64,000 bases of DNA from positions 1 to 64,000 of the IMG/VR virus record IMGVR_UViG_3300012122_000001. One strand, given 5' to 3'. This document shows positions 1 to 36,588 of this stretch, piece by piece. The position numbers and the translations under genes were made by a program. The stretch's first letter is position 1. Every line of letters begins with the position of its first letter. The DNA comes from a virus. Lineage: Duplodnaviria > Caudoviricetes. Below the pieces are notes generated by a model, which saw only the letters and a list, made by a program, of their open reading frames with translations, ran no database searches and was not told where the DNA came from.

Positions 1-370
1 AGACGTCGTTCCGCTCCATCCAGCGGTTGAGCACTCGACTGGATGCCGGGGTCCTCCTGAAGAGAACCGAATCCAAAGACACCCACCCGATTCCGTTGAA
101 CGGTCCCGCGACGGCAGGCTTTGCGCCGATGCGATCGACGAACGCCGCGACGTCCCAGGACGTGTCCTGCATGACCGGATAGACGCGGGCGGAGTTCACC
201 CGGCCTCCTGGAGCGACGAAGAGAAACCCCTCCTTCTCCCCCTCGAAGCTGTTCATCGCCCGGAAGATCGCCCTGGCGACCGACGTCCGGCGCGTGTCCT
301 GGAAGAGGGTGAAGCCCTTCACGTTTCCGATGAGCGGCGACTTCTTTCCCTTGAACGAGACGATGATCAT
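1..370 (-). CDS. hypothetical protein, partial (runs off left edge)
   Basis: Manual translation MIIVSFKGKKSPLIG... is open to position 1; ATG overlaps the stop of the upstream gene (ATGA). Confidence 0.6.
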   Translation of the reverse strand, partial: MIIVSFKGKKSPLIGNVKGFTLFQDTRRTSVARAIFRAMNSFEGEKEGFLFVAPGGRVNSARVYPVMQDTSWDVAAFVDRIGAKPAVAGPFNGIGWVSLDSVLFRRTPASSRVLNRWMERNDV

Positions 371-783: not shown

Positions 784-1109
784 TAGGGGCTCCTTCCTTC
801 TTCCATTTCCGAAAGCCGCGCGTCGATGAACGGCAGAAGATCCGAGACCTTCTTGACGCGATCGCCATCGATCCGCTCCTCCACGCCCAACTCCGAGGCG
901 AGGTGCAGAACTTTCCCGGCGATCGGGAACTGCGGGGAGTTCATCGAGTCGTACGGCCACCCGGTCAGGCGACCGTTGAGCTCGAGATCCTCCAGGATCC
1001 ACTTGCAGCAGGGAGCGCACCCAGGGGAGTTTTCGTCGACCGGGATCCGGCCCCTCAGGAACGCCTTGAGAACCTGGGACTGCTCCACCTTCTTCAGAAT
1101 TTCTTCCAT
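783..1109 (-). CDS. hypothetical protein
   Basis: 108-aa ORF with normal composition, co-oriented in operon. Confidence 0.6.
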   Translation of the reverse strand: MEEILKKVEQSQVLKAFLRGRIPVDENSPGCAPCCKWILEDLELNGRLTGWPYDSMNSPQFPIAGKVLHLASELGVEERIDGDRVKKVSDLLPFIDARLSEMEEGRSP

Positions 1110-1149
1110 GTCTCTCTCCGTAAATTTTCCAACGTGTACACGATCACTT

Positions 1150-1386
1150 TTACAGATCGCATTCTACGTCGTACTGATTGCACATCCTCCTGACGATTTC
1201 GATCTGGCCCTGGGAGAGCGCGCGCTTCTCCTGGCGTAGCTGATTCATCACGCCCTGAAGGAAGTCTGCTTCCCAGGGCGTCACGTCGACGTCCATGTCG
1301 TCGAGCTCCTTGATCGTCTCGAGCTGGCTCTCGATGATCTTCTCGACGGCCTTCTCGACGTCGTCGAAGTCGCTGTACTCGGTCAC
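1150..1386 (-). CDS. hypothetical acidic protein
   Basis: 78-aa ORF overlapping upstream stop. Confidence 0.6.
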   Translation of the reverse strand: MTEYSDFDDVEKAVEKIIESQLETIKELDDMDVDVTPWEADFLQGVMNQLRQEKRALSQGQIEIVRRMCNQYDVECDL

Positions 1387-1607
1387 TTGGGTTCAGCCTT
1401 TCTTCTCTCGAGCTCTTCGACCATCAGTCGCACATCTTCCTTGTTTGACCGGACCGCCTCTCGGAGCTCGACGTGCTTGTCCGACGGAACTCCTCGGAGC
1501 AGTTGCTCGCTGTCGTGAATCAGCTTGTTCGTCACCCGGATCTCCTCGACGAGCCATTTCATCGAGACGACCTTGAGAACTTCCCTGATGCCGTCGCCGT
1601 AGCTCAT
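1383..1607 (-). CDS. hypothetical coiled-coil protein
   Basis: MSYGDG... start within ORF 1383..1937; ATGA coupling to 1604..2056. Confidence 0.55.
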   Translation of the reverse strand: MSYGDGIREVLKVVSMKWLVEEIRVTNKLIHDSEQLLRGVPSDKHVELREAVRSNKEDVRLMVEELERRKAEPK

Positions 1608-2056
1608 AGTCCGACCTGTTGGATCTTGACGACCGCCGCGACCGCCTCGGCGTGAACGTCGGTCCCTTCGAGCGCCGCGAGGTCGAGGATCGTCTGAAGG
1701 CAGGTCCCGTTCCTGCCGACCCGGATCGGCACCGGGGCCCCAGGCACCGACCTCAGGATCGTCAGCTCGGAGGCGTCGAGCTGGGCCTGATCCATGCACT
1801 CCAGGACCAGGAAGCCCTCGCAGCCGGACAGGTTGTGCGGGTACTTCCCGCCGTAGTACTCCTTCACGAGGCCCAGCCACTTCTTCTTCACGAGGCAGAA
1901 GTCGTTCGGCGCCGGGCAAGGGCAGATCCCGGCCCACTGCGAGACGCAGCGGACGTTCTCACGCCAGAGCCGCCCCAGGACCGCGGCGCCCTTGGTAAGG
2001 CGCGGGGGAAGCCCTGCACGCTTCCTGGCGGCGATGGTCTCCTGGATTGAAGCCAT
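1604..2056 (-). CDS. hypothetical protein
   Basis: 150-aa ORF with GGAGACGAGG-type RBS. Confidence 0.6.
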   Translation of the reverse strand: MASIQETIAARKRAGLPPRLTKGAAVLGRLWRENVRCVSQWAGICPCPAPNDFCLVKKKWLGLVKEYYGGKYPHNLSGCEGFLVLECMDQAQLDASELTILRSVPGAPVPIRVGRNGTCLQTILDLAALEGTDVHAEAVAAVVKIQQVGL

Positions 2057-2069
2057 TTTCCTCGTCTCC

Positions 2070-2235
2070 GATTTAAAGGACAGTTAGGACAGTTGGACAG
2101 TTATTTGGTTAAACAGCCCACGCGCGCGCGCGCGCGCGCGTGAAGGTGATGAATCGGGAAATCTGTCCAACTGTCCTAAAAACTGCATTTCCTGCGAAAT
2201 TTTCAAGTTTTGGCATCACAACTGTCCTTTAAATC
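2070..2235. repeat. putative replication origin: nested inverted repeats, GGACAGTT iterons, (CG)10 core
   Basis: 16-bp perfect IR 2070-2085/2220-2235; GGACAGTT x3 (2078, 2087, 2095) with inverted copies at 2169 and 2220; 24-bp palindrome CA(CG)10TG at 2119-2142; directly downstream of primase-helicase. Confidence 0.65.
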
Positions 2236-4522
2236 AGAACTCGTTTTCCCTGGAAAGCTTGACGCTGGACTGCTGGAGGCCGATTCCGAAGCGCCATTTG
2301 TGCCCGCCGGACTTCTCGACCTTGTATCCCAGGTCGGTCAGACGGCGCCCGAACGCCGTCCCGGACATGGGTTCGTCGCTGCCGATCTCCCGTCGATGCC
2401 ACTCGACGTAGGCCTCGTAGAGGTCGGACGCCTTGCACCGGAGCTCGTTCATCAGGACGCAGCAGTCGGAGAAGAAGCGGCCGACGACGTCGGCGTCGGT
2501 CCGGTACTCCGCGGTCGCGGAGAGTACCTCGGTGGGGTCCTGGAGGCCTCCCTCGCGCCAGAGCTTCGCGCCTTCGACGGCCCAGGCCAGGATCCCGGAC
2601 GCCTCGCCCATCAGCTTGTCCATGAGCGTGTGGTCCATCTTGTCGGGGCCGATGACGACGGAGAACGGGATCAGGCGCACGCGGCGCCAGATTCCGAAGT
2701 CCATCCCCTTGATCTCCGGCTTGTTGTTCGTCGCCATGAAGATCTTCCAGGTCGGCTTGAGCGTCCAGAAGTCCTCGCGCATCCTGCGGACCTTGAGCTC
2801 GTCGCCGCCGGTTAACTGCTTGACGAAGTTCTCGGCGAGACGTCGGCCGTCCTCGACCTCGATCGTCGTCACGAACCGCTTTCCGGCGAGATCGGCGCGC
2901 TCAGTCGGGTGGGCCGACTGGGTCCTGGTCATCACAAGGTCCGGAGCGGCTTCTGCGGCATAGTCGGCGCCGATCACGTTCCGGAGCGCACCCAGGAACG
3001 TCGACTTCCCGTTCGCGCCTTTGCCGTAGGCGATCGGTAGGATGTGCTCCCGGACGATGCCGGTCAGAGAGTATCCGGCCAGCCGCTGGAGGTAGCCGAC
3101 CAAGCTTTCGTTGTCGGCCATGATCTCGTGGAGGAACGCCTGCCACCTGGGGGCTTTGGCGTTCGGATCGTACGAGGTGGGACTGAGCTTCGTGTGGAGA
3201 TTCTCGCGACGATGCTCCTCGAAGGATCCATCCTTCAGGTTGATCGTCCCGTTCATGCAGTTGAAGGTCCAGGGATCGCCGTCGAACTGCTCGGGCTCGA
3301 CTGCCCGCATGTGCTGGGCGACCCGGAGTGTGGCGCTGATCCGCTCGGACTTCTGGCGCTTCTCTCCGGCGTTGACGGCGATCTCGACGGACCGGCCGAA
3401 CGCAGAGCCGACGCGGTCGGGAACCCAGCGACGACCGTCCCAGACGATCCACTTCCTCCAAGGCTCGCAGAAGACGAAGTCTTTTCCGAAGTGGGAGACG
3501 AACTGGTTCGCCGCGTCGACGTCGGTGACGGTCGTCGGCTCGTCGCCTTCCTTTTTCTTCTTCAGCTTCTGTCCGAAGCCCTGGTCGAGCAGATCCTTGG
3601 CGGACTTCTTGAAGTCGCCGTTGTACTTCAGGAACGTGATCGCCGCCCACTTCGAGTAGGTCGAGTCCGGCTCGAAGGGCGTGGCGTTCGAGCTGAAGAC
3701 GTGCAGGTTGTCGCCGCAGAAGCCGACGGAGGCGGAGTGGCCCTCGTCGGTCTTCCCAGGCCTTTTCCAATAGACGATCGGGCCGTCGATCTTCGCCTTC
3801 CGCCATCCGTACGGCTCGAGAACCGCCTCCCAGGTGGCGCGGGCGTTGAAGTCGTCGCCTGGGGCGGTCTCGCCCGAGGCGCTCGGGTTTCCTTTTTCGC
3901 CTGGGCCGATGATCTTCTTCGGCGCCTTGTTGAAGGACTTCGCCGTCTCGATCAGCGTCGTCCGCTCGTCGTCGGTGATCGTCGGCACCTCCGTCAGGAG
4001 CGGACCATCGGCGTGGACGTAGGCCTTCTCGAGCGGATGGCATTTCGGATGGCTGGGGGGCGCGAGAACGTAGCCGCCTTCGCCGCGGGTCTCGATCAGG
4101 ACGTGCTTGTCCTCGGCGATCGCGAGCTTTTGATTGTGCTCGATCTTCGGAGCCCTGTAGTAGAAGTGAGCTCCGCCCTTCGGCGTCGCGATGCGCGGCA
4201 GGCGCGCGACGAGATCCGGCCGGACCCCGTTGACCGCCTGGATCCAGGGGTCGATCAGGGAGGGATCGTCGAAGTCGATCATCTCCAGGTTGCCGGAGAC
4301 CGCTCCGCCGATGATGGCGAGGCCGATCGGCTTGTCCGTGGAGAACCACTGGGCGAGCTCGTACGGGATAGCCTTGCGCTTCTCGTACTGCTTCCAGGTG
4401 CAGGCGGGAGCCTTCGAGCCGTCTGCCCGTACAGGAATTACGGACAGACCGGCGGCGACGTAGGCTTGCGCTGCTGCGAGTATGTATTCCGGAGACGCGG
4501 TCTCCGGTGCCTTGTCCGGCAT
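2234..4522 (-). CDS. bifunctional primase-polymerase (Prim-Pol) fused to D5/P4-type SF3 helicase
   Basis: N-terminal LSVIPV..DGSKAP, IDFD, TPKGGAHFYY, ETRGEGGYVLAPPS; D5_N-like WIVWDGRRW; Walker A GKGANGKST; KQLTGGD; MATNNKP; WRRVRLIPF. Confidence 0.92.
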   Translation of the reverse strand: MPDKAPETASPEYILAAAQAYVAAGLSVIPVRADGSKAPACTWKQYEKRKAIPYELAQWFSTDKPIGLAIIGGAVSGNLEMIDFDDPSLIDPWIQAVNGVRPDLVARLPRIATPKGGAHFYYRAPKIEHNQKLAIAEDKHVLIETRGEGGYVLAPPSHPKCHPLEKAYVHADGPLLTEVPTITDDERTTLIETAKSFNKAPKKIIGPGEKGNPSASGETAPGDDFNARATWEAVLEPYGWRKAKIDGPIVYWKRPGKTDEGHSASVGFCGDNLHVFSSNATPFEPDSTYSKWAAITFLKYNGDFKKSAKDLLDQGFGQKLKKKKEGDEPTTVTDVDAANQFVSHFGKDFVFCEPWRKWIVWDGRRWVPDRVGSAFGRSVEIAVNAGEKRQKSERISATLRVAQHMRAVEPEQFDGDPWTFNCMNGTINLKDGSFEEHRRENLHTKLSPTSYDPNAKAPRWQAFLHEIMADNESLVGYLQRLAGYSLTGIVREHILPIAYGKGANGKSTFLGALRNVIGADYAAEAAPDLVMTRTQSAHPTERADLAGKRFVTTIEVEDGRRLAENFVKQLTGGDELKVRRMREDFWTLKPTWKIFMATNNKPEIKGMDFGIWRRVRLIPFSVVIGPDKMDHTLMDKLMGEASGILAWAVEGAKLWREGGLQDPTEVLSATAEYRTDADVVGRFFSDCCVLMNELRCKASDLYEAYVEWHRREIGSDEPMSGTAFGRRLTDLGYKVEKSGGHKWRFGIGLQQSSVKLSRENEF

Positions 4523-12391: not shown

Positions 12392-13933
12392 ATGAGCTCG
12401 ACCGTCGAAGGGCTCGAGCGCGGAGTCATCGGCACGGACAAAACCATCCAGAGAATGCACCGTCTGGTCGCGCTGGGAAAGCTCGACCCGACGATCCAGA
12501 AGATCGCGACCTGGATCCGCCTGGGCGTGCCCAAGGACGTGCGCGCCTCGACGAAGCTCGCGGCCGACGCGATCTTCAACTGGGTTCAGAAGCACGGTCT
12601 CTTCCAGCGCGACCCGTTCCAGATCGAGAAGATCGAGCATCCTATCGAAGCGATGCGGCCGATCATCGAGGCGCGCAAGGCCGGGACGTACACCGGACCG
12701 GCGCTCTTCGTCGGCGACTGCGACACGATGGCGGGCGTGTACACGGCGAGTTTGCTCGGCGTGCTCGGCTTCCAGTATTCCTTCGAAACCGCCAAGGTCG
12801 ATCCGGATCGCCCCGACGAGTTCTCTCACGTCTGGGTCTCCGCGCGGATCGGGAACGAGTGGTACCCGCTCGACCCGTCGACGCGCGGGGCATATCCCGG
12901 CTGGCGTCCTCCGGTCAAGCCGGAGCAGTTCAAACGCTGGCCGGAGGGACCGATCGAAGACGTCGTGAAAGGGTCCGACATGAGCGCATTCAACAGCGGC
13001 ATGGGGGATAACGGAGAAGACGAAGGCGGCGACGAGCCCGTCATCGAGAACAACGATTCCCCCCTCACCGGAGTCGACGCCGAGTACGCCCAGGACTACA
13101 TCGGATACGGGATCCCCAGGGACTTCGGCAGCGGCCCAGGCGTGATCCCGCCCGGCAACTTCGAGAGCCTCCAGCTCCTTCCGCCGCACGACACGCAGAT
13201 CCCGGCGGCCGACCTGGAGCGGGACATGCATCTGCTCAAGGCGGCGCCGCGCCTGGACCCGTCCGAACGGATCCAGAGCCTCGCCGGTCAGCCGAACGAC
13301 CACGGCAACCCCTACTATCGCGGGGGTGGTCGCCAGCCCTACATCAAGGTCGAGCGCAAGATGTACCCGCCCGGCTCGCGCTGGAACGAGCCGTACGGCA
13401 AGGACACCATCCGCTACCAGAAAACCGACAAGTACATTTCCGTCAAGAGTCCCGAAACACCCGAAAGACGAGTGGAGGTCAAGATGGACCAGCCGATGCT
13501 GATCCGCAGGAGAAACGTCATGACGCCCCCTCAGCGGATCCCGTTCGGCGCAATGGACGGCATGGGCGACATCGATCCCAATACCGGGATCATGACCTTC
13601 GGCTCGACGCCCGCGCCCACGGCGACGCAGACGGCAGCGGCGACCGCCGGAACGTCCGTCTGGGATTCGATCCTGGGCGCATTCTCGTCCGTCGCGAAGG
13701 CCGCCGGAACGATCGTTCCGTCGGTGCTCCAGTCGAAGACCGCGCAGGCCGTCGCGAGCGCGACGAACCGTCTCGCGGGCTCGAACGTGCTGACGGCCGG
13801 GCAGCTCACCAACCCGACGCCCTGGTACAAGAACCCCGTCACGATCGGCCTGGGGCTCGCCACGCTCGGCGGCCTGGGCTACGTCGTCATCAAGATGCGC
13901 CCCGGCATGGGCGGCCGGAGGCGTCGCCGGTAG
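12392..13933 (+). CDS. transglutaminase-like (papain-fold) cysteine protease with C-terminal membrane anchor; candidate virion maturation protease
   Basis: Cys-His-Asp triad in GDCDTMA, FSHVW, WYPLDPS; C-terminal TM (VTIGLGLATLGGLGYVVI) plus RRRRR. Confidence 0.8.
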   Translation: MSSTVEGLERGVIGTDKTIQRMHRLVALGKLDPTIQKIATWIRLGVPKDVRASTKLAADAIFNWVQKHGLFQRDPFQIEKIEHPIEAMRPIIEARKAGTYTGPALFVGDCDTMAGVYTASLLGVLGFQYSFETAKVDPDRPDEFSHVWVSARIGNEWYPLDPSTRGAYPGWRPPVKPEQFKRWPEGPIEDVVKGSDMSAFNSGMGDNGEDEGGDEPVIENNDSPLTGVDAEYAQDYIGYGIPRDFGSGPGVIPPGNFESLQLLPPHDTQIPAADLERDMHLLKAAPRLDPSERIQSLAGQPNDHGNPYYRGGGRQPYIKVERKMYPPGSRWNEPYGKDTIRYQKTDKYISVKSPETPERRVEVKMDQPMLIRRRNVMTPPQRIPFGAMDGMGDIDPNTGIMTFGSTPAPTATQTAAATAGTSVWDSILGAFSSVAKAAGTIVPSVLQSKTAQAVASATNRLAGSNVLTAGQLTNPTPWYKNPVTIGLGLATLGGLGYVVIKMRPGMGGRRRRR

Positions 13934-29696: not shown

Positions 29697-29975
29697 GTGA
29701 TGCTGCTTTCTCTGTCCTTCGTGATGGATGCGGTGACGGTGGATCCTCCGACCGGCGGAATCAGTGCGCTGGCGTGGATCATCATCGTCACTCTGGCTGG
29801 GGTATGTGGTGTGGCGATCCCCGCTCTCTGGTATCGCGGGAACAAGATCCAGGACCGGATGTACGCGGACCTGAAGACCTGCAACGAGAGACGGGTTCAG
29901 TCCGAGGAAGAGCAGCTCGACCTGCTCAAGCTCGTTCGGCTCCAGATGGAGCAGTCGAAGGGAGGCAAGCGGTGA
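29697..29975 (+). CDS. membrane protein with coiled coil (holin-like)
   Basis: TM ALAWIIIVTLAGVCGVAIPALW followed by heptads. Confidence 0.55.
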   Translation: MMLLSLSFVMDAVTVDPPTGGISALAWIIIVTLAGVCGVAIPALWYRGNKIQDRMYADLKTCNERRVQSEEEQLDLLKLVRLQMEQSKGGKR

Positions 29976-30202
29976 GCTCGAGATCAAAGAGCACGGTCAA
30001 GATGTTGTGCGTCGCGTCGAACGCGATCATGCGGAAGGAGCTTCCTGAGGAGGCCCAGAGGCTTCTCGAGGTCTACAACGATCCGGCCGTCGCCCCGGAG
30101 CAGAAGGCGATCGCCAAGTCGCAGTTGGACGACATGATCAAGGATCTCGAGTCCAGGGTCACGACCAGGAGACTGAACGAAGCTCGCGAGAAATCCATAT
30201 AA
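29972..30202 (+). CDS. hypothetical protein
   Basis: GTG overlapping upstream TGA, GGAGG RBS. Confidence 0.55.
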   Translation: MSSRSKSTVKMLCVASNAIMRKELPEEAQRLLEVYNDPAVAPEQKAIAKSQLDDMIKDLESRVTTRRLNEAREKSI

Positions 30203-30207
30203 GGAGC

Positions 30208-30243
30208 GTTGTAACCGCCCGTCCTTAACCGGGCGGTTGTAAC
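30208..30243. other. intergenic inverted repeat
   Basis: AACCGCCCG/CGGGCGGTT stem with flanking TTGTAA. Confidence 0.45.
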
Positions 30244-30250
30244 TCGGTGA

Positions 30251-30523
30251 ATGGTGAGTACCTATTCGAAAGCCAGGGGGCGGGCGGGAAAATTGGCGTT
30301 GGTCGCAGCCCTGGTGGTCTCCACCATGGGCTGCGCCATCGCGGATCGGTCGGATAAGTTCGGTGCAGAATTAGACCTGGGGCTCGGCGGGATCCTCAGC
30401 TCGATGATCGATGTCCGCCTGTATGCGTCGGTGGGATTCTCGAAGACCTGTAAGGATGGGGTGAACGGTGAGAAAGAAGCTGATCTGGATGGCGATCCTC
30501 TTGGCCTTCGGGGGTTTCTTTAG
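30251..30523 (+). CDS. putative lipoprotein
   Basis: Basic N-terminus, hydrophobic stretch, lipobox TMGC. Confidence 0.5.
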   Translation: MVSTYSKARGRAGKLALVAALVVSTMGCAIADRSDKFGAELDLGLGGILSSMIDVRLYASVGFSKTCKDGVNGEKEADLDGDPLGLRGFL

Positions 30524-31037
30524 CGGCTGCACCGTAGCGCAGCGAAAAGAGATTCTGGAAGAAGCGAAGCTCTACGCCTTCGAGCAGGGGAAGATCCTTC
30601 TCGAGCAGGCGAAGGAGCAGGGTAAGGTGATCGCCATCCAGGCGGTCGAGAAGATCCAGAAGAAGGCCGACGAGGAGGAGGCGAAGCAGTTCGCTGCTCT
30701 AGATCAGCAGCTCACGGCCTTCAAGGTTGTCGACCAGGAGACCCAGATCGAAATCTCGAAGACCTGGAGAGACTTCGACGCCGATAAGAGCGGACACCTG
30801 GAGCCGATCGAGCTCGGCAAGGTTACCGCCTACATCACCACTCAGACCGCGAAGAAGATCGCGACCGGCGAGATCGACAAGAATACGGCCGGACAGACCG
30901 GGAAGAGTACAGGCGCGACGATCTCGGTGCTCCTGGCCCTCTACCTCGCGCGCCGCGGCGCGGGAGCTCTGACGTCGAAATTCAAGCCTGCGGTGACCCC
31001 TACAACTCCTAGAGCCGGAGGGGCGCCGCCTTCATAA
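30468..31037 (+). CDS. putative lipoprotein with EF-hand loop and C-terminal TM
   Basis: MRKKLIWMAILLAFGGFFSGC lipobox; DADKSGHLEPIE canonical 12-residue EF loop; ISVLLALYLA TM. Confidence 0.65.
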   Translation: MRKKLIWMAILLAFGGFFSGCTVAQRKEILEEAKLYAFEQGKILLEQAKEQGKVIAIQAVEKIQKKADEEEAKQFAALDQQLTAFKVVDQETQIEISKTWRDFDADKSGHLEPIELGKVTAYITTQTAKKIATGEIDKNTAGQTGKSTGATISVLLALYLARRGAGALTSKFKPAVTPTTPRAGGAPPS

Positions 31038-31038
31038 G

Positions 31039-31332
31039 ATGGACGAGATCCTTGGAGCTCTTGACCCTTCAACGCTTGGCATGGGCGTCGACGCTTCGGC
31101 TGTTGTCGCAGTGTCGGAAGCGACGAATTTGATCAAAGGAGACATGCGGAAGTGGGGTCTCGATGCCGTCGTGGGGAGGTTCTATCCGGCAATCCCGTTT
31201 TTGATTGCTTTTGGCCTGGGTCTGTTGTACGGGAATGCACTCTGGTCCGACGCTTTATGGTATTCTGGGAAGATAGGGCTGCTATCCAGCTTTGCTTGGC
31301 AAGGCTATAGGGTATCGGTGAAGGGCAAATGA
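31039..31332 (+). CDS. holin-like small membrane protein
   Basis: 97 aa, 2-3 hydrophobic helices, basic tail; lower GC. Confidence 0.5.
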   Translation: MDEILGALDPSTLGMGVDASAVVAVSEATNLIKGDMRKWGLDAVVGRFYPAIPFLIAFGLGLLYGNALWSDALWYSGKIGLLSSFAWQGYRVSVKGK

Positions 31333-32672
31333 GAATTTATGTGCCGATGGAATCGGGGCTGAACCCCCGAGAGATCGCCGCCATGCGGCGCCTCTCGAGG
31401 AGTTCGCTCGCGATCATTGCCGACGAGCTTCACGAGCCGACCTCCAGGAGCACCGTGAAGAGGGTTCTCTCCTCCCGCGATCCGGAGCGGGAAGTGATCA
31501 GGCAGGTCGCCGAAGAGGTCCAGCGCGCCGTCTGGGCCATCAGCACCGTCCGTCACGCCGGACTCGGGGACCACGAGTACGACGACATGGAGCTCATGCC
31601 CGACATCGGCTTCGGAAGCTTCTTCAAGAAGGTCGCCAAGAAGATCAAGGGCGTCGCCAAGAAGGTCGTCGACATCCACAAGAAGGTCTTCGACAAGACC
31701 GTCAAGCCCGTCATCAAAGCGACCGTGAAGGTCGCGAAGAAGTCCGTCGAGATCACCAAGAAGACCGTGAAAAAGGTGATCGAGACGCAGAAGAAGGTCA
31801 TCAAGAAGATCGGGAAGGCGATCAAACCGTACATCCCGATCATCCTAACGGTCGTGGGCGCGGTGCTGGCGCCGTTCACCGGAGGCGCCTCCCTGGCGGT
31901 CGCCGCTGCCCTGAACGCGGGCTACATGCTCGCCATGAAGGCGAAGGCAGCGAGAGCCGCGAAGAAGGAAGGCCGCGCAGCAGCCGCCCAGATGCAGGCC
32001 GAGGTGAGCGCGCAGACGGCCGACCTGAACCGCCAGCTCGACCAGCTCTTCACGGAGAACCAGGGGGTCTTTGCCGCCGCAGGTATCTCCCAGGCGGCCT
32101 GGAACGCGATGAGCCTCGAGCAGCGCCTCGCGGTCGTCGAGCGGATCAACTCCGGCAACATGCCGTCGTCGCAGTCGAATGCCGACGCCGCCACGGAGGC
32201 CCAGGGGAATCCTCCGACGACCCAGACGCAGACGTGGCGGGATGCGATCAATTCCTCGCCGGTCATGCAGCAGTGGCGTGACGAGGCCGGAGACTCCGAC
32301 ACCGCGACCGCCGGAGTCCAGACCCCGACCGGGACGTACGACGTCTACGTCGAAGGCCGGAAGGTCGGGACCGCCCAGACGCTCGACGAGGCGTCCTCGA
32401 TCATGGCGAACAACTCGAAGGCCGGGGACCGGGTCGAGATCGTGCTCAACGGTCGCTCCCTGGGCCTCAAGATCGTGACGGGCGGCGGCGGGGTCATCTC
32501 GATCCCCGCCGGTCAGGCCGATGCGGTCCGCGCGATGTCGAGGTCCGAAGTCGACGCGATGCTCTCCAGGGCTGGTCAGACAACGACCGCTTCGAGCGGA
32601 TCCTCCGGCGGGCTCGTGCTTGCCCTCGCCGTCCCGGCGGCGATCCTCTTTGCCATGCATTCGAAGGGTTAG
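31329..32672 (+). CDS. internal virion protein with Lys-rich amphipathic segment (candidate membrane penetration / DNA delivery protein)
   Basis: GLGD..GFG followed by SFFKKVAKKIKGVAKK (~25 Lys in ~75 aa), hydrophobic hairpin, coiled coil, C-terminal TM. Confidence 0.7.
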   Translation: MRIYVPMESGLNPREIAAMRRLSRSSLAIIADELHEPTSRSTVKRVLSSRDPEREVIRQVAEEVQRAVWAISTVRHAGLGDHEYDDMELMPDIGFGSFFKKVAKKIKGVAKKVVDIHKKVFDKTVKPVIKATVKVAKKSVEITKKTVKKVIETQKKVIKKIGKAIKPYIPIILTVVGAVLAPFTGGASLAVAAALNAGYMLAMKAKAARAAKKEGRAAAAQMQAEVSAQTADLNRQLDQLFTENQGVFAAAGISQAAWNAMSLEQRLAVVERINSGNMPSSQSNADAATEAQGNPPTTQTQTWRDAINSSPVMQQWRDEAGDSDTATAGVQTPTGTYDVYVEGRKVGTAQTLDEASSIMANNSKAGDRVEIVLNGRSLGLKIVTGGGGVISIPAGQADAVRAMSRSEVDAMLSRAGQTTTASSGSSGGLVLALAVPAAILFAMHSKG

Positions 32673-35811: not shown

Positions 35812-36086
35812 TGAAGAACCTCAGCACGGCGATCGAAGTCGCGGCGGACTACGCCCTGCACCTCCACAAGCAGGACGGCGTTCCGAAGCAGAAGGCGATT
35901 GCCGCCGGGGCCGCCTCGGTCGTCCGTGCAGTCAGAGCCACCCGCGTCAACGACGCGAACGGCTTCATCGTGCCGCCCAGGAAGTACGTCAAGGATGCGG
36001 GCGTCGGATTCTCCGGCGACGCGATCATGGGAGCGGGATCGCTCCTGTCTGCGTTCGGTTGGATCAAGAATCTCGTGGGAGGGTAG
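35808..36086 (+). CDS. hypothetical protein
   Basis: 92 aa, ATGA coupling. Confidence 0.55.
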   Translation: MMKNLSTAIEVAADYALHLHKQDGVPKQKAIAAGAASVVRAVRATRVNDANGFIVPPRKYVKDAGVGFSGDAIMGAGSLLSAFGWIKNLVGG

Positions 36087-36087
36087 G

Positions 36088-36588
36088 GTGAGCGAAGCGG
36101 AAGAAAACGGCGAAGCGGACTTCCCGTCCGAAAAGGAAATCAAGGAAGCCTTCCCGAAGCTCGACTCCAGTAAAGTGAGCGAGCTCTTCAACATCCTCAA
36201 GAACGCCACGAGCCCCGACGCCCACGACGACGATCCGGACGACGCGATGGAGAAGGCCAACGCGATCCTCGACGGCCACGGGGTCGAAGGGATCAAGGCC
36301 GAAGACGGATATCAGGTCGACCGCTTCTGGCGCGACACGATTCTCATCTACGTCAACCAGGGCGACACCTACGAAACGACGATCTGCTACGACACCGAAG
36401 AGGGCGCCTTCTTCGTCGGCTCCTGGGGCGACTTCGTGGAGGAATGGGAGAAGGGCGGCGAGGAGGACGAGGACGAAGAAGAGGGCGAGGACGAAGAAGA
36501 GGAAGAGGAGTCCGAGGACGAAGAGGACGAGGAAGAGGATGACGACGACGAGACCTCAACCCTCGACGAAGAGGTCAAGGAGAACTAG
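36088..36588 (+). CDS. hypothetical phage protein with long acidic tail
   Basis: GHGVEGI..YVNQGDTYETTI..VGSWGD domain, then ~30-residue D/E run; GTG start. Confidence 0.7.
   Translation: MSEAEENGEADFPSEKEIKEAFPKLDSSKVSELFNILKNATSPDAHDDDPDDAMEKANAILDGHGVEGIKAEDGYQVDRFWRDTILIYVNQGDTYETTICYDTEEGAFFVGSWGDFVEEWEKGGEEDEDEEEGEDEEEEEESEDEEDEEEDDDDETSTLDEEVKEN

Follow-up and report, generated by a model that had tools for sequence, protein, structure and literature searches.

An undescribed family of viral membrane proteins with a long lysine-only amphipathic helix: candidate membrane-shaping proteins of a probably tail-less phage

Results

A conserved viral membrane protein without annotated relatives

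The stretch of DNA analysed here (64,000 nucleotides, hereafter the window) comprises bases 1-64000 of the 72,725-bp IMG/VR virus record IMGVR_UViG_3300012122_000001, which has direct terminal repeats and is rated 100% complete. In this work, we specifically analysed the open reading frame (ORF) at positions 31329-32672 on the plus strand, which encodes a protein of 447 amino acids (aa) with a long, cationic amphipathic helix, a hydrophobic hairpin and a C-terminal transmembrane anchor (Table 1). Its ATG overlaps the stop codon of an upstream 97-aa membrane ORF (ATGA), and this start is supported because the N-terminus, MRIYVP, is kept in relatives. An earlier note, made from the sequence alone, had described a masked cationic helix resembling adenovirus protein VI (pVI) or antimicrobial peptides (AMPs) in this protein; its observation is confirmed and its interpretation partly supported, as detailed below.

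The gene lies in a same-strand block (~9.6-41.6 kb, hereafter the virion operon) that is almost without Pfam or PHROGs matches and, like the late region of the phage SSIP-1, is rich in proteins with C- or N-terminal membrane anchors. Replication genes (primase-polymerase/D5 helicase and AAA_24) are located in one genome arm, and both genome ends carry minus-strand genes for glycosyltransferases and methyltransferases. Among ~40 larger ORFs genome-wide, including the 8.7 kb beyond the window, Pfam detected no terminase, portal, HK97 capsid or tail families; the PHROGs search covered 20 proteins of the virion block. A Walker-A scan of the operon for a packaging ATPase gave only two replication proteins, the virion-operon proteins 19964 and 9599 had no tblastn match in 50,697 phage records, and Pfam results for the distant loci L008, L010, L020 and L025 were uninformative on a tailed or tail-less nature. 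A tail-less virion with an internal membrane would be a reasonable frame for this virus.

Thirty-five relatives of the 447-aa protein were found in a set of 5.8 billion proteins, on contigs of which the longest reach 75 kb, and a profile search with the family returned 273 representative clusters at E<=1e-3, including 84 at <=1e-30, with no annotation for any of the 273. Neither Pfam nor PHROGs gave anything above threshold for the whole protein, Pfam searches of its sub-domains at E<=10 produced noise only, and Pfam across 48 family members found no consistent family. No match was obtained in a sequence-profile search of the PDB or by tblastn against the same phage records, and Foldseek and VIA-wide searches with the whole model returned generic helical hairpins only (Z<=6.7). 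The 447-aa protein thus represents an undescribed, widespread family of viral membrane proteins, whereas the type of element it carries, a viral membrane-active amphipathic helix, is already known. The same neighbours accompany the gene across related contigs, namely ORFs 29697, 32676, 33361, 34125 and 36589, the glycosyltransferase 34471, the GP88-like 38701 and the capsid candidates 19964 and 20907, and mark it as a core gene of a group of viruses.

A lysine-only helix built of in-phase 11-residue repeats

The GLGD (residues 78-81) and GFG (residues 94-96) motifs and the Lys-rich run that the earlier note had placed after them are indeed present, the run spanning residues 97-166 with 25 Lys, no Arg and four Asp or Glu (net charge +21). 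The ratio of Lys to Arg is 25:0 in this segment versus 9:25 elsewhere in the protein, and the remaining proteins of the window have a K/(K+R) of 0.38; a Lys-only composition also stands out against a genome of 63% GC. The helical-wheel and hydrophobic-moment check that the note had proposed showed the segment to be strongly amphipathic, with a mean 18-residue moment of 0.56 versus 0.25+-0.05 in shuffled sequences (z 6.2; best angle 100 degrees) and a V/I/A/F face opposite a Lys-only face ~180 degrees wide. This cationic amphipathic character was found in 18 of 18 aligned relatives (net +11 to +27), despite indels and identities of 31-79%.

The periodicity of the segment is that of an 11/3 helix. 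The Fourier peak lies at 98 degrees in the window protein as well as in the family mean (3.67 residues per turn), and each of the 18 relatives peaks within 94-101 degrees. Residues 98-163 can be written as six repeats of the form hydrophobic-x-K-K-hydrophobic-hydrophobic-K-K-hydrophobic-x-polar that share a common phase (40-110 degrees). The coherent 11/3 amplitude was 0.581 (98.2 degrees), compared with 0.130+-0.067 in shuffles (maximum 0.38 in 5000; z ~6.7), whereas the heptad (7/2) amplitude of 0.107 (102.9 degrees) was at chance level. Hydrophobicity autocorrelation peaked at lags 11 (0.56) and 22 (0.51), with no peak at 14 or 21. An 11/3 periodicity is the mark of long helices that run straight along a lipid surface, such as those of apolipoproteins, alpha-synuclein and perilipins, and not of left-handed coiled coils or short pore-forming peptides. 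Its extension over 66 residues and the width of the Lys face are more in keeping with a helix that lies on the surface and acts on curvature than with one that forms pores.

The hydrophobic hairpin announced by the earlier note follows directly, at residues 167-203. Its arms of ~15 and ~17 residues are arranged around the invariant PFTGGAS turn and are free of indels in the family, and both of its flanks are basic, with the +21 segment before it and KAKAARAAKK after it. The hairpin is short for a full double span of the membrane and compatible with a wedge-like insertion. Together with the helices that follow, it forms the conserved core of a wider superfamily.

Glycine motifs precede the helix and recur in the virion operon

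The A-G-[LM]-[GS]-D motif is nearly invariant in the family amid variable flanks and is present in most relatives, distant ones included. Many distant members have a second G-[FIL]-G-E near residue 10-28, and the motifs therefore bracket the N-terminal domain; in the AlphaFold2 (AF2) models, the Gly-hydrophobic-Gly motifs fall in low-confidence stretches flanking the helices of that domain. The aromatic start of the long helix (FFKK) comes directly after the G-x-G motif, and the corresponding junctions read GLGE-LGG-WWKK and GLSGLFSK in the metagenomic loci L017 and L024, respectively.

The earlier note took the first 80-90 residues for a prosegment that masks the helix. The motifs of this prosegment are there, but the 77-residue N-terminal part is a folded, non-acidic and conserved domain. 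Similarly, an acidic segment of ~14 residues (net -6) does exist as a potential mask, but it is weak against a charge of +21 and is missing from several relatives: P0019, P0023 and L017 lack the acidic linker, and the motif stands there 2-3 residues before the aromatic start of the helix. Conserved in these alignments is a motif followed by the helix, and not an acidic mask followed by the helix.

Across the proteins of the virion operon, G[LMIVF]G[DE] occurred nine times versus 1.97 expected (shuffle P ~0.0005, an optimistic value, as the motif was defined post hoc), and it was absent from the five proteins examined that lie outside this block. Of seven control patterns, six were not enriched, among them swapped and reversed forms and forms with other final residues; the superset G[LMIVF]G-any was mildly enriched (29 versus 19.7, P 0.016). 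Relatives of 33361 also keep the motif, as [AS]GLGD in L002, L003 and L005 with indels around it, and those of 20907 keep it as GGLGDD behind a variable tail of Pro and Arg; this conservation is evidence independent of the enrichment.

A transglutaminase-fold protein is a candidate partner

The first 165 residues of protein 12392, which heads the virion operon, contain the GDCD, SHVW and LDPS motifs of a putative Cys-His-Asp enzyme; the protein further has a C-terminal anchor and two GMGD motifs of its own. In the Atlas, its residues 1-200 group with PF01841 Transglut_core clusters (features 0.94; structure TM-score 0.77-0.85). It aligns with gp34 of SSIP-1, annotated as a structural protein (BLASTP E 7e-10), with Cys, His and Asp in register, and a G-M-G-[DE] motif lies ~40-50 residues after the catalytic Asp in both proteins (GMGD in 12392; GMGE, at about 50 residues, in gp34). 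With Pfam, 12392 remained below the PF01841 threshold (17.9 bits versus 23), and gp34 (29.6 bits) and the neighbours of the 447-aa protein's relatives in L017 and L024 exceeded it. The gp34 gene is located at 21296-22210 of L027, and its Transglut_core domain is unmentioned in the GenBank annotation.

Gene linkage brings the two families together. In L017, the gene for a relative of the 447-aa protein (BLASTP E 5e-10) begins within a stand-alone Transglut_core gene (E 5.7e-12), and in L024 the two genes are 1.4 kb apart. L017 is a short metagenomic contig whose positions 882-3405 hold, in order, a 361-aa acidic helical (scaffold-like) ORF, a 175-aa Transglut_core enzyme and the overlapping relative, which ends in a Gly-rich tail; it may be seen as a compact version of the putative enzyme-substrate pairing. 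Motif enrichment, motif conservation and gene linkage are good circumstantial evidence for a functional link between 12392 and the 447-aa protein. The transglutaminase fold also serves cell-wall peptidases and cross-linking enzymes, and 12392 could equally be either of these.

Remaining domains of the 447-aa protein

AF2 predictions on the family alignment were confident solely for residues 10-77 and 334-417. When folded alone with an alignment of 48 sequences, the N-terminal domain reached a mean predicted local distance difference test score (pLDDT) of 83.6, with 10-residue block means of 89-97 over residues 11-70, and consisted of helices 13-21, 24-34, 37-47 and 52-76. Foldseek searches of this domain against the PDB and BFVD gave E>0.8 and the best VIA-wide match had Z 3.7; a helix-turn-helix (HTH) identity was considered and is unsupported, as no HTH stood out in the fold searches and the HTH_7 match was weak (E 0.56). 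The coiled coil that the earlier note had proposed after the hairpin was not borne out, since residues 204-275 carry no heptad signal (amplitude 0.09), even though AF2 models the region as helical; its structure matches were generic helical bundles only (Z<=6.7). The C-terminal domain has the order beta-beta-alpha-beta-beta-beta-alpha-alpha, and an Atlas search matched it at a TM-score of ~0.5 to unnamed small beta domains, with nothing informative.

Table 1. Coordinates of the 447-aa protein, its parts and the candidate partner enzyme
Feature	Residues	Positions	Strand	Basis and remarks
Whole ORF, undescribed viral membrane protein family	1-447	31329..32672	+	ORF listing, homologs; no Pfam/PHROGs family
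N-terminal four-helix domain	10-77	31356..31559	+	AF2; conserved; no known fold
A-G-[LM]-[GS]-D motif	77-81	31557..31571	+	Alignment, G78 nearly invariant; candidate cleavage or docking site
Short acidic linker	82-93	31572..31607	+	18-residue window 79-96 has net charge -6; length variable
G-[FLM]-[GSC] motif	94-96	31608..31616	+	Directly precedes aromatic helix start FFKK
Lys-only amphipathic region	97-166	31617..31826	+	Six in-phase 11-residue repeats; 11/3 helix of ~100 Angstrom
Hydrophobic helical hairpin	167-203	31827..31937	+	Invariant PFTGGAS turn; hydropathy
Basic patch, then helical region	204-275	31938..32153	+	AF2 helices 187-213, 218-243, 263-275; conserved
Small alpha/beta C-terminal domain	334-417	32328..32579	+	AF2 block-mean pLDDT 70-88 over residues 331-410
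C-terminal transmembrane anchor, followed by a 3-residue tail	425-444	32601..32660	+	Hydropathy 1.99; conserved
Membrane-anchored transglutaminase-fold Cys-His-Asp protein 12392		12392..13933	+	Atlas, BLASTP to gp34, Pfam; candidate partner

Parts of the protein found elsewhere

The C-terminal domain and anchor (32328-32660) occur in many metagenomic proteins, either alone (80-157 aa) or fused to unrelated N-termini (500-650 aa), P0114, P0123, P0129, P0124 and P0136 being examples, and behave as a mobile membrane-tethering module. Bacterial proteins likewise contain the PFTGGASLA turn. Those of Pedobacter and Chitinophaga have a PAAR-like DUF4280 domain on one side of it, a PT-HINT-nuclease toxin on the other and a VgrG gene next to their own, a layout by which these proteins are type VI secretion system (T6SS) effectors. 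Loci with the turn are L036 (9461-11050, Pedobacter mendelii), L030, L032 and L037. The turn also appears in very large proteins of metagenome-assembled genomes of Spirochaetales, Treponemataceae, Muribaculaceae and Chlamydiae. Going by the peptide, the hairpin may be a portable membrane-insertion module. A relation to the ApoL/colicin-like hairpin (PF05461) was rejected: the hairpin of the window scored 15.2 bits versus a cutoff of 25.9, none of 48 family members had a match at E<=0.01, and PF05461 was reached only by an L029 protein of unrelated length (26.6 bits).

Surroundings of the gene

A run of small membrane ORFs occupies 29697-31332 on the plus strand, directly upstream of the 447-aa ORF. 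It includes a 92-aa ORF with an N-terminal transmembrane segment and a helical tail, a Lys-rich ORF of 189 aa that has a lipobox-like FSGC and whose C-terminal end is hydrophobic, and the 97-aa hydrophobic ORF, which contains GMGVD; the run could be a spanin- or holin-like set, but PHROGs gave no match for it. At its beginning, the ORFs 29697-29975 and 29774-30202 (plus strand) overlap in different frames and both have conserved tblastn matches in six related loci, which may mean either that the start of the second gene is mis-set (with an internal Met near 30002) or that there is a frameshift site. Local GC content is 0.596 and GC skew +0.10 at 30001-32000, where the flanking bins have GC contents of 0.629 and 0.669 and the window-wide range is 0.59-0.67; this dip coincides with the Lys-rich coding stretches 30468-31037 and 31617-31826. 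Downstream, 32676 and 33361 were compared as possible paralogs with a negative result, and the ORF at 35899-36588 (plus strand), kept in L003, encodes a protein that ends in an extreme poly-Glu/Asp tail (the listed ORF has net -48) and whose true start is probably internal. As a scaffold or a charge chaperone, this protein could serve the many basic proteins of the virion.

Discussion

In this work, we directly established the architecture and conservation of the 447-aa protein, the periodicity of its helix, the enrichment and conservation of its Gly-hydrophobic-Gly-[DE] motif, the fold and homology of the enzyme 12392, and the linkage of the two genes. Our leading, still tentative reading of these results is that the protein is an integral component of a lipid membrane lying under the capsid of a probably tail-less phage, where its Lys helix would bend the membrane. 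The PFTGGAS hairpin and the C-terminal anchor would hold the protein in the bilayer. Since basic residues flank the hairpin on both sides, the soluble parts of the protein, from the N-domain and Lys helix to the middle helices and C-domain, would by the positive-inside rule be on the cytoplasmic face of the host membrane. In an assembly of the PRD1 type, a patch of host membrane would bud into the cytoplasm under the assembling capsid, and this cytoplasmic face would become the outer leaflet, facing the capsid. As the 66-residue helix has an 11/3 periodicity, its hydrophobic stripe stays straight, and the helix can therefore lie flat on an anionic leaflet for ~100 Angstrom. Acting as a wedge, the in-plane cationic helix and the short hairpin would expand the outer leaflet and curve the membrane toward the cytoplasm, as such an assembly requires. 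They may thereby stabilise the membrane during the formation of the vesicle and the procapsid and may be reused when it is remodelled at entry, with the N- and C-domains contacting capsid proteins. The G-hydrophobic-G-[DE] linker between the N-domain and the helix would probably be recognised, and perhaps cut, by the membrane-anchored Cys-His-Asp enzyme, leaving a free helix N-terminus. It is from the sequence features listed above that we infer this topology, the location in the virion, the bending of the membrane and the cleavage.

Two kinds of known systems bear on this membrane-bending reading. The helices with 11-residue repeats of alpha-synuclein, the exchangeable apolipoproteins and the perilipins resemble the segment described here in being Lys-rich, in their narrow hydrophobic face of small residues and in their 11/3 periodicity, which is in phase over 66 residues in our case. 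Such hendecad helices lie along anionic lipid surfaces and sense or induce their curvature. The likeness is functional only, there being no homology (no Pfam match), and the polar face of those helices is zwitterionic, whereas in the 447-aa protein it is all Lys, the helix is joined to a membrane hairpin and the context is viral. In phage PRD1, late-operon membrane proteins shape or remodel the internal viral membrane, among them P7/P14, P18 and P32 (tube formation) and P16 (linking vertex and membrane). The 447-aa protein is much larger and multi-domain, and has no homology to them that could be detected by tblastn against the phage records or with PHROGs. Anionic phosphatidylglycerol is mainly found in the outer leaflet of the PRD1 membrane, and membrane proteins drive its remodelling at entry (PMC3782422).

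Several observations weigh against the membrane-bending reading. The proposed topology depends on the positive-inside rule and on an assumed PRD1-like acquisition of the membrane, and the presence of the protein in virions, the jelly-roll capsid and the tail-less nature of the virus are putative. A homolog of the 447-aa protein is undetectable in SSIP-1, the single cultured distant relative, and hhalign comparison of the capsid candidate 19964 with SSIP-1 gp40 and gp41 gave no match. The motif carries the post hoc definition mentioned above, and two of its nine instances, in 22367 and 36589, are not conserved. Finally, the upstream segment has a net charge >=+10 in 48 of 91 hairpin-bearing relatives, so that the Lys-rich helix is not essential superfamily-wide, about half of these relatives being without a strongly cationic one.

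A different use of the same elements is put forward by the analogy to adenovirus and AMPs drawn in the earlier note. The protein would be a latent entry factor and functional analogue of pVI, in which cleavage by a virion protease at GLGD, GFG or both lays bare an AMP-like lytic helix that perforates the host envelope when the tail-less virion infects; we regard this as possible but unlikely. The parallel with pVI and its protease adenain has some substance. In both viruses, a protein (here encoded in the virion operon) has an amphipathic helix just after a Gly-containing motif, the virus encodes a Cys enzyme of a papain-like fold, and the motif recurs in several virion proteins (here of the virion operon); moreover, the pVI helix acts by altering membrane curvature (PMC3386624). 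In the phage family, an aromatic pair opens the helix directly after the G-x-G motif in all relatives, L017 and L024 included, and the enriched and conserved G-hydrophobic-G-[DE] motif, the virion-type transglutaminase-fold enzyme and its gene linkage are all consistent with processing. As to the AMPs, the hydrophobic moment of the segment (0.54-0.71) falls within the range of magainin, cecropin, melittin and LL-37, with which it shares a cationic amphipathic helix, and its G-hydrophobic-G and aromatic start recall magainin and melittin. The resemblance that the note had seen thus holds for a conserved cationic amphipathic helix, but it does not extend to homology with pVI or AMP families or to an adenain consensus.

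Indeed, no sequence or fold relation to pVI was found with Pfam (whole protein and sub-domains), PDB sequence searches or Foldseek, and residues 70-100 hold A-G-L-G-D and I-G-F-G-S instead of the adenain sites (M/I/L)XGX-G and (M/I/L)XGG-X. Cleavage is putative here, and the helix is three times longer and far more cationic than that of pVI. Nor does the free helix of the pVI or AMP style survive the analysis: pVI is soluble and released, whereas the hairpin and the C-terminal anchor make the 447-aa protein an integral membrane protein, and because of them any cleavage product would stay membrane-bound. In contrast to AMPs, this is a 447-aa membrane protein with no N-terminal signal-like hydrophobic segment, in which an acidic part of -6, absent in some relatives, faces a charge of +21; the tethered segment of 66-70 residues has two to three times the length and about twice the charge density (0.30 per residue) of an AMP, a lower hydrophobicity and a wide polar face (~180 degrees). 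Length and in-phase 11/3 periodicity fit surface binding, and the enzyme, as noted above, might have a cell-wall or cross-linking function. The identical PFTGGASLA turn of the PAAR-like (DUF4280) polymorphic toxins of the T6SS of Bacteroidota, placed between two short hydrophobic helices and followed by a Lys/Ala-rich helix, can also be cited for an entry factor, as T6SS effectors must act on target cells from outside. However, this similarity spans 30-60 residues only (18-29 bits), the remainder of those proteins being PAAR-like, PT-HINT and nuclease toxin, and the likeness, which was found by exact-peptide seeding, may be convergent. The latent lytic helix and the bending of a membrane under the capsid share much of their evidence and are compatible, not mutually exclusive. 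A broader version of the former, which we hold to be doubtful, is an adenovirus-style maturation in large tail-less bacterial viruses, in which a packaged transglutaminase-fold protease would cut several virion proteins at G-hydrophobic-G-[DE] and free the N-terminus of a tethered, 100-Angstrom Lys helix that remodels or perforates membranes at genome delivery.

Three further roles are less likely than either membrane bending or a latent lytic helix. It is improbable that the protein is non-structural and belongs to a cassette for lysis, lysis timing or superinfection exclusion that depolarises or disrupts the inner membrane late in infection. Its gene does lie within a run of small membrane-protein genes (the overlapping 97-aa ORF, the lipobox ORF 30468 and ORF 29697 with its N-terminal transmembrane segment), and cationic amphipathic peptides can replace spanins in some phages, but 447 aa and two folded domains are unlike holins or spanins, neither PHROGs nor Pfam found a holin, spanin or endolysin match for the protein or its neighbours (Phage_holin_5_2 was sub-threshold for the protein, E 0.13), and the G-x-G-[DE] motif is common to this protein and those of the capsid operon. 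More improbable still is a membrane-anchored protein that binds or condenses the packaged genome at the inner side of the viral membrane through its Lys segment and an HTH-like N-domain. The very high positive charge would suit it, and the layout of three helices plus a long one recalls an HTH, with the weak HTH_7 match mentioned above; yet the strict hydrophobic 11/3 stripe and the Lys-only usage speak for contact with lipid or protein and not with DNA, a segment of charge +21 would hardly cross to the lumen, the N-domain has no HTH or other fold match, and an Arg-rich, protamine-like protein (17869, 72 R) is encoded in the operon as it is. Hardly to be expected, finally, is a ruler of capsid size, a tape-measure or cement protein with an extended helix that sets a constant length beneath the capsid facets, as tape-measure proteins do in PRD1 and giant viruses: a straight helix of ~100 Angstrom, membrane anchors and a place in the virion operon would agree with it, but in three relatives whose longest contigs differ little in size (72.7, 72.9 and 75.0 kb) the Lys-rich segment is 70, 59 and 52 residues long, and the segment is short or weakly charged in many relatives.

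Tail-less phages that contain a membrane are abundant but poorly understood with regard to how a vesicle is pinched from the host membrane and later converted into a device for DNA delivery, and the PRD1 proteins for vesicle formation and DNA delivery are without recognisable relatives. The family described here combines two textbook elements of curvature, a short hairpin wedge and a long in-plane 11/3 helix, and has a linear motif and a gene neighbourhood in common with a virion-type cysteine enzyme, which makes it a concrete candidate for membrane shaping. We know of no earlier maturation-protease system in prokaryotic viruses of this apparent capsid type; if the proposed cleavage is true, this would be the first, paralleling the maturation of adenovirus and giant viruses. 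For biophysics, the Lys-only peptide is of interest in its own right, as a natural amphipathic helix of unusual length.

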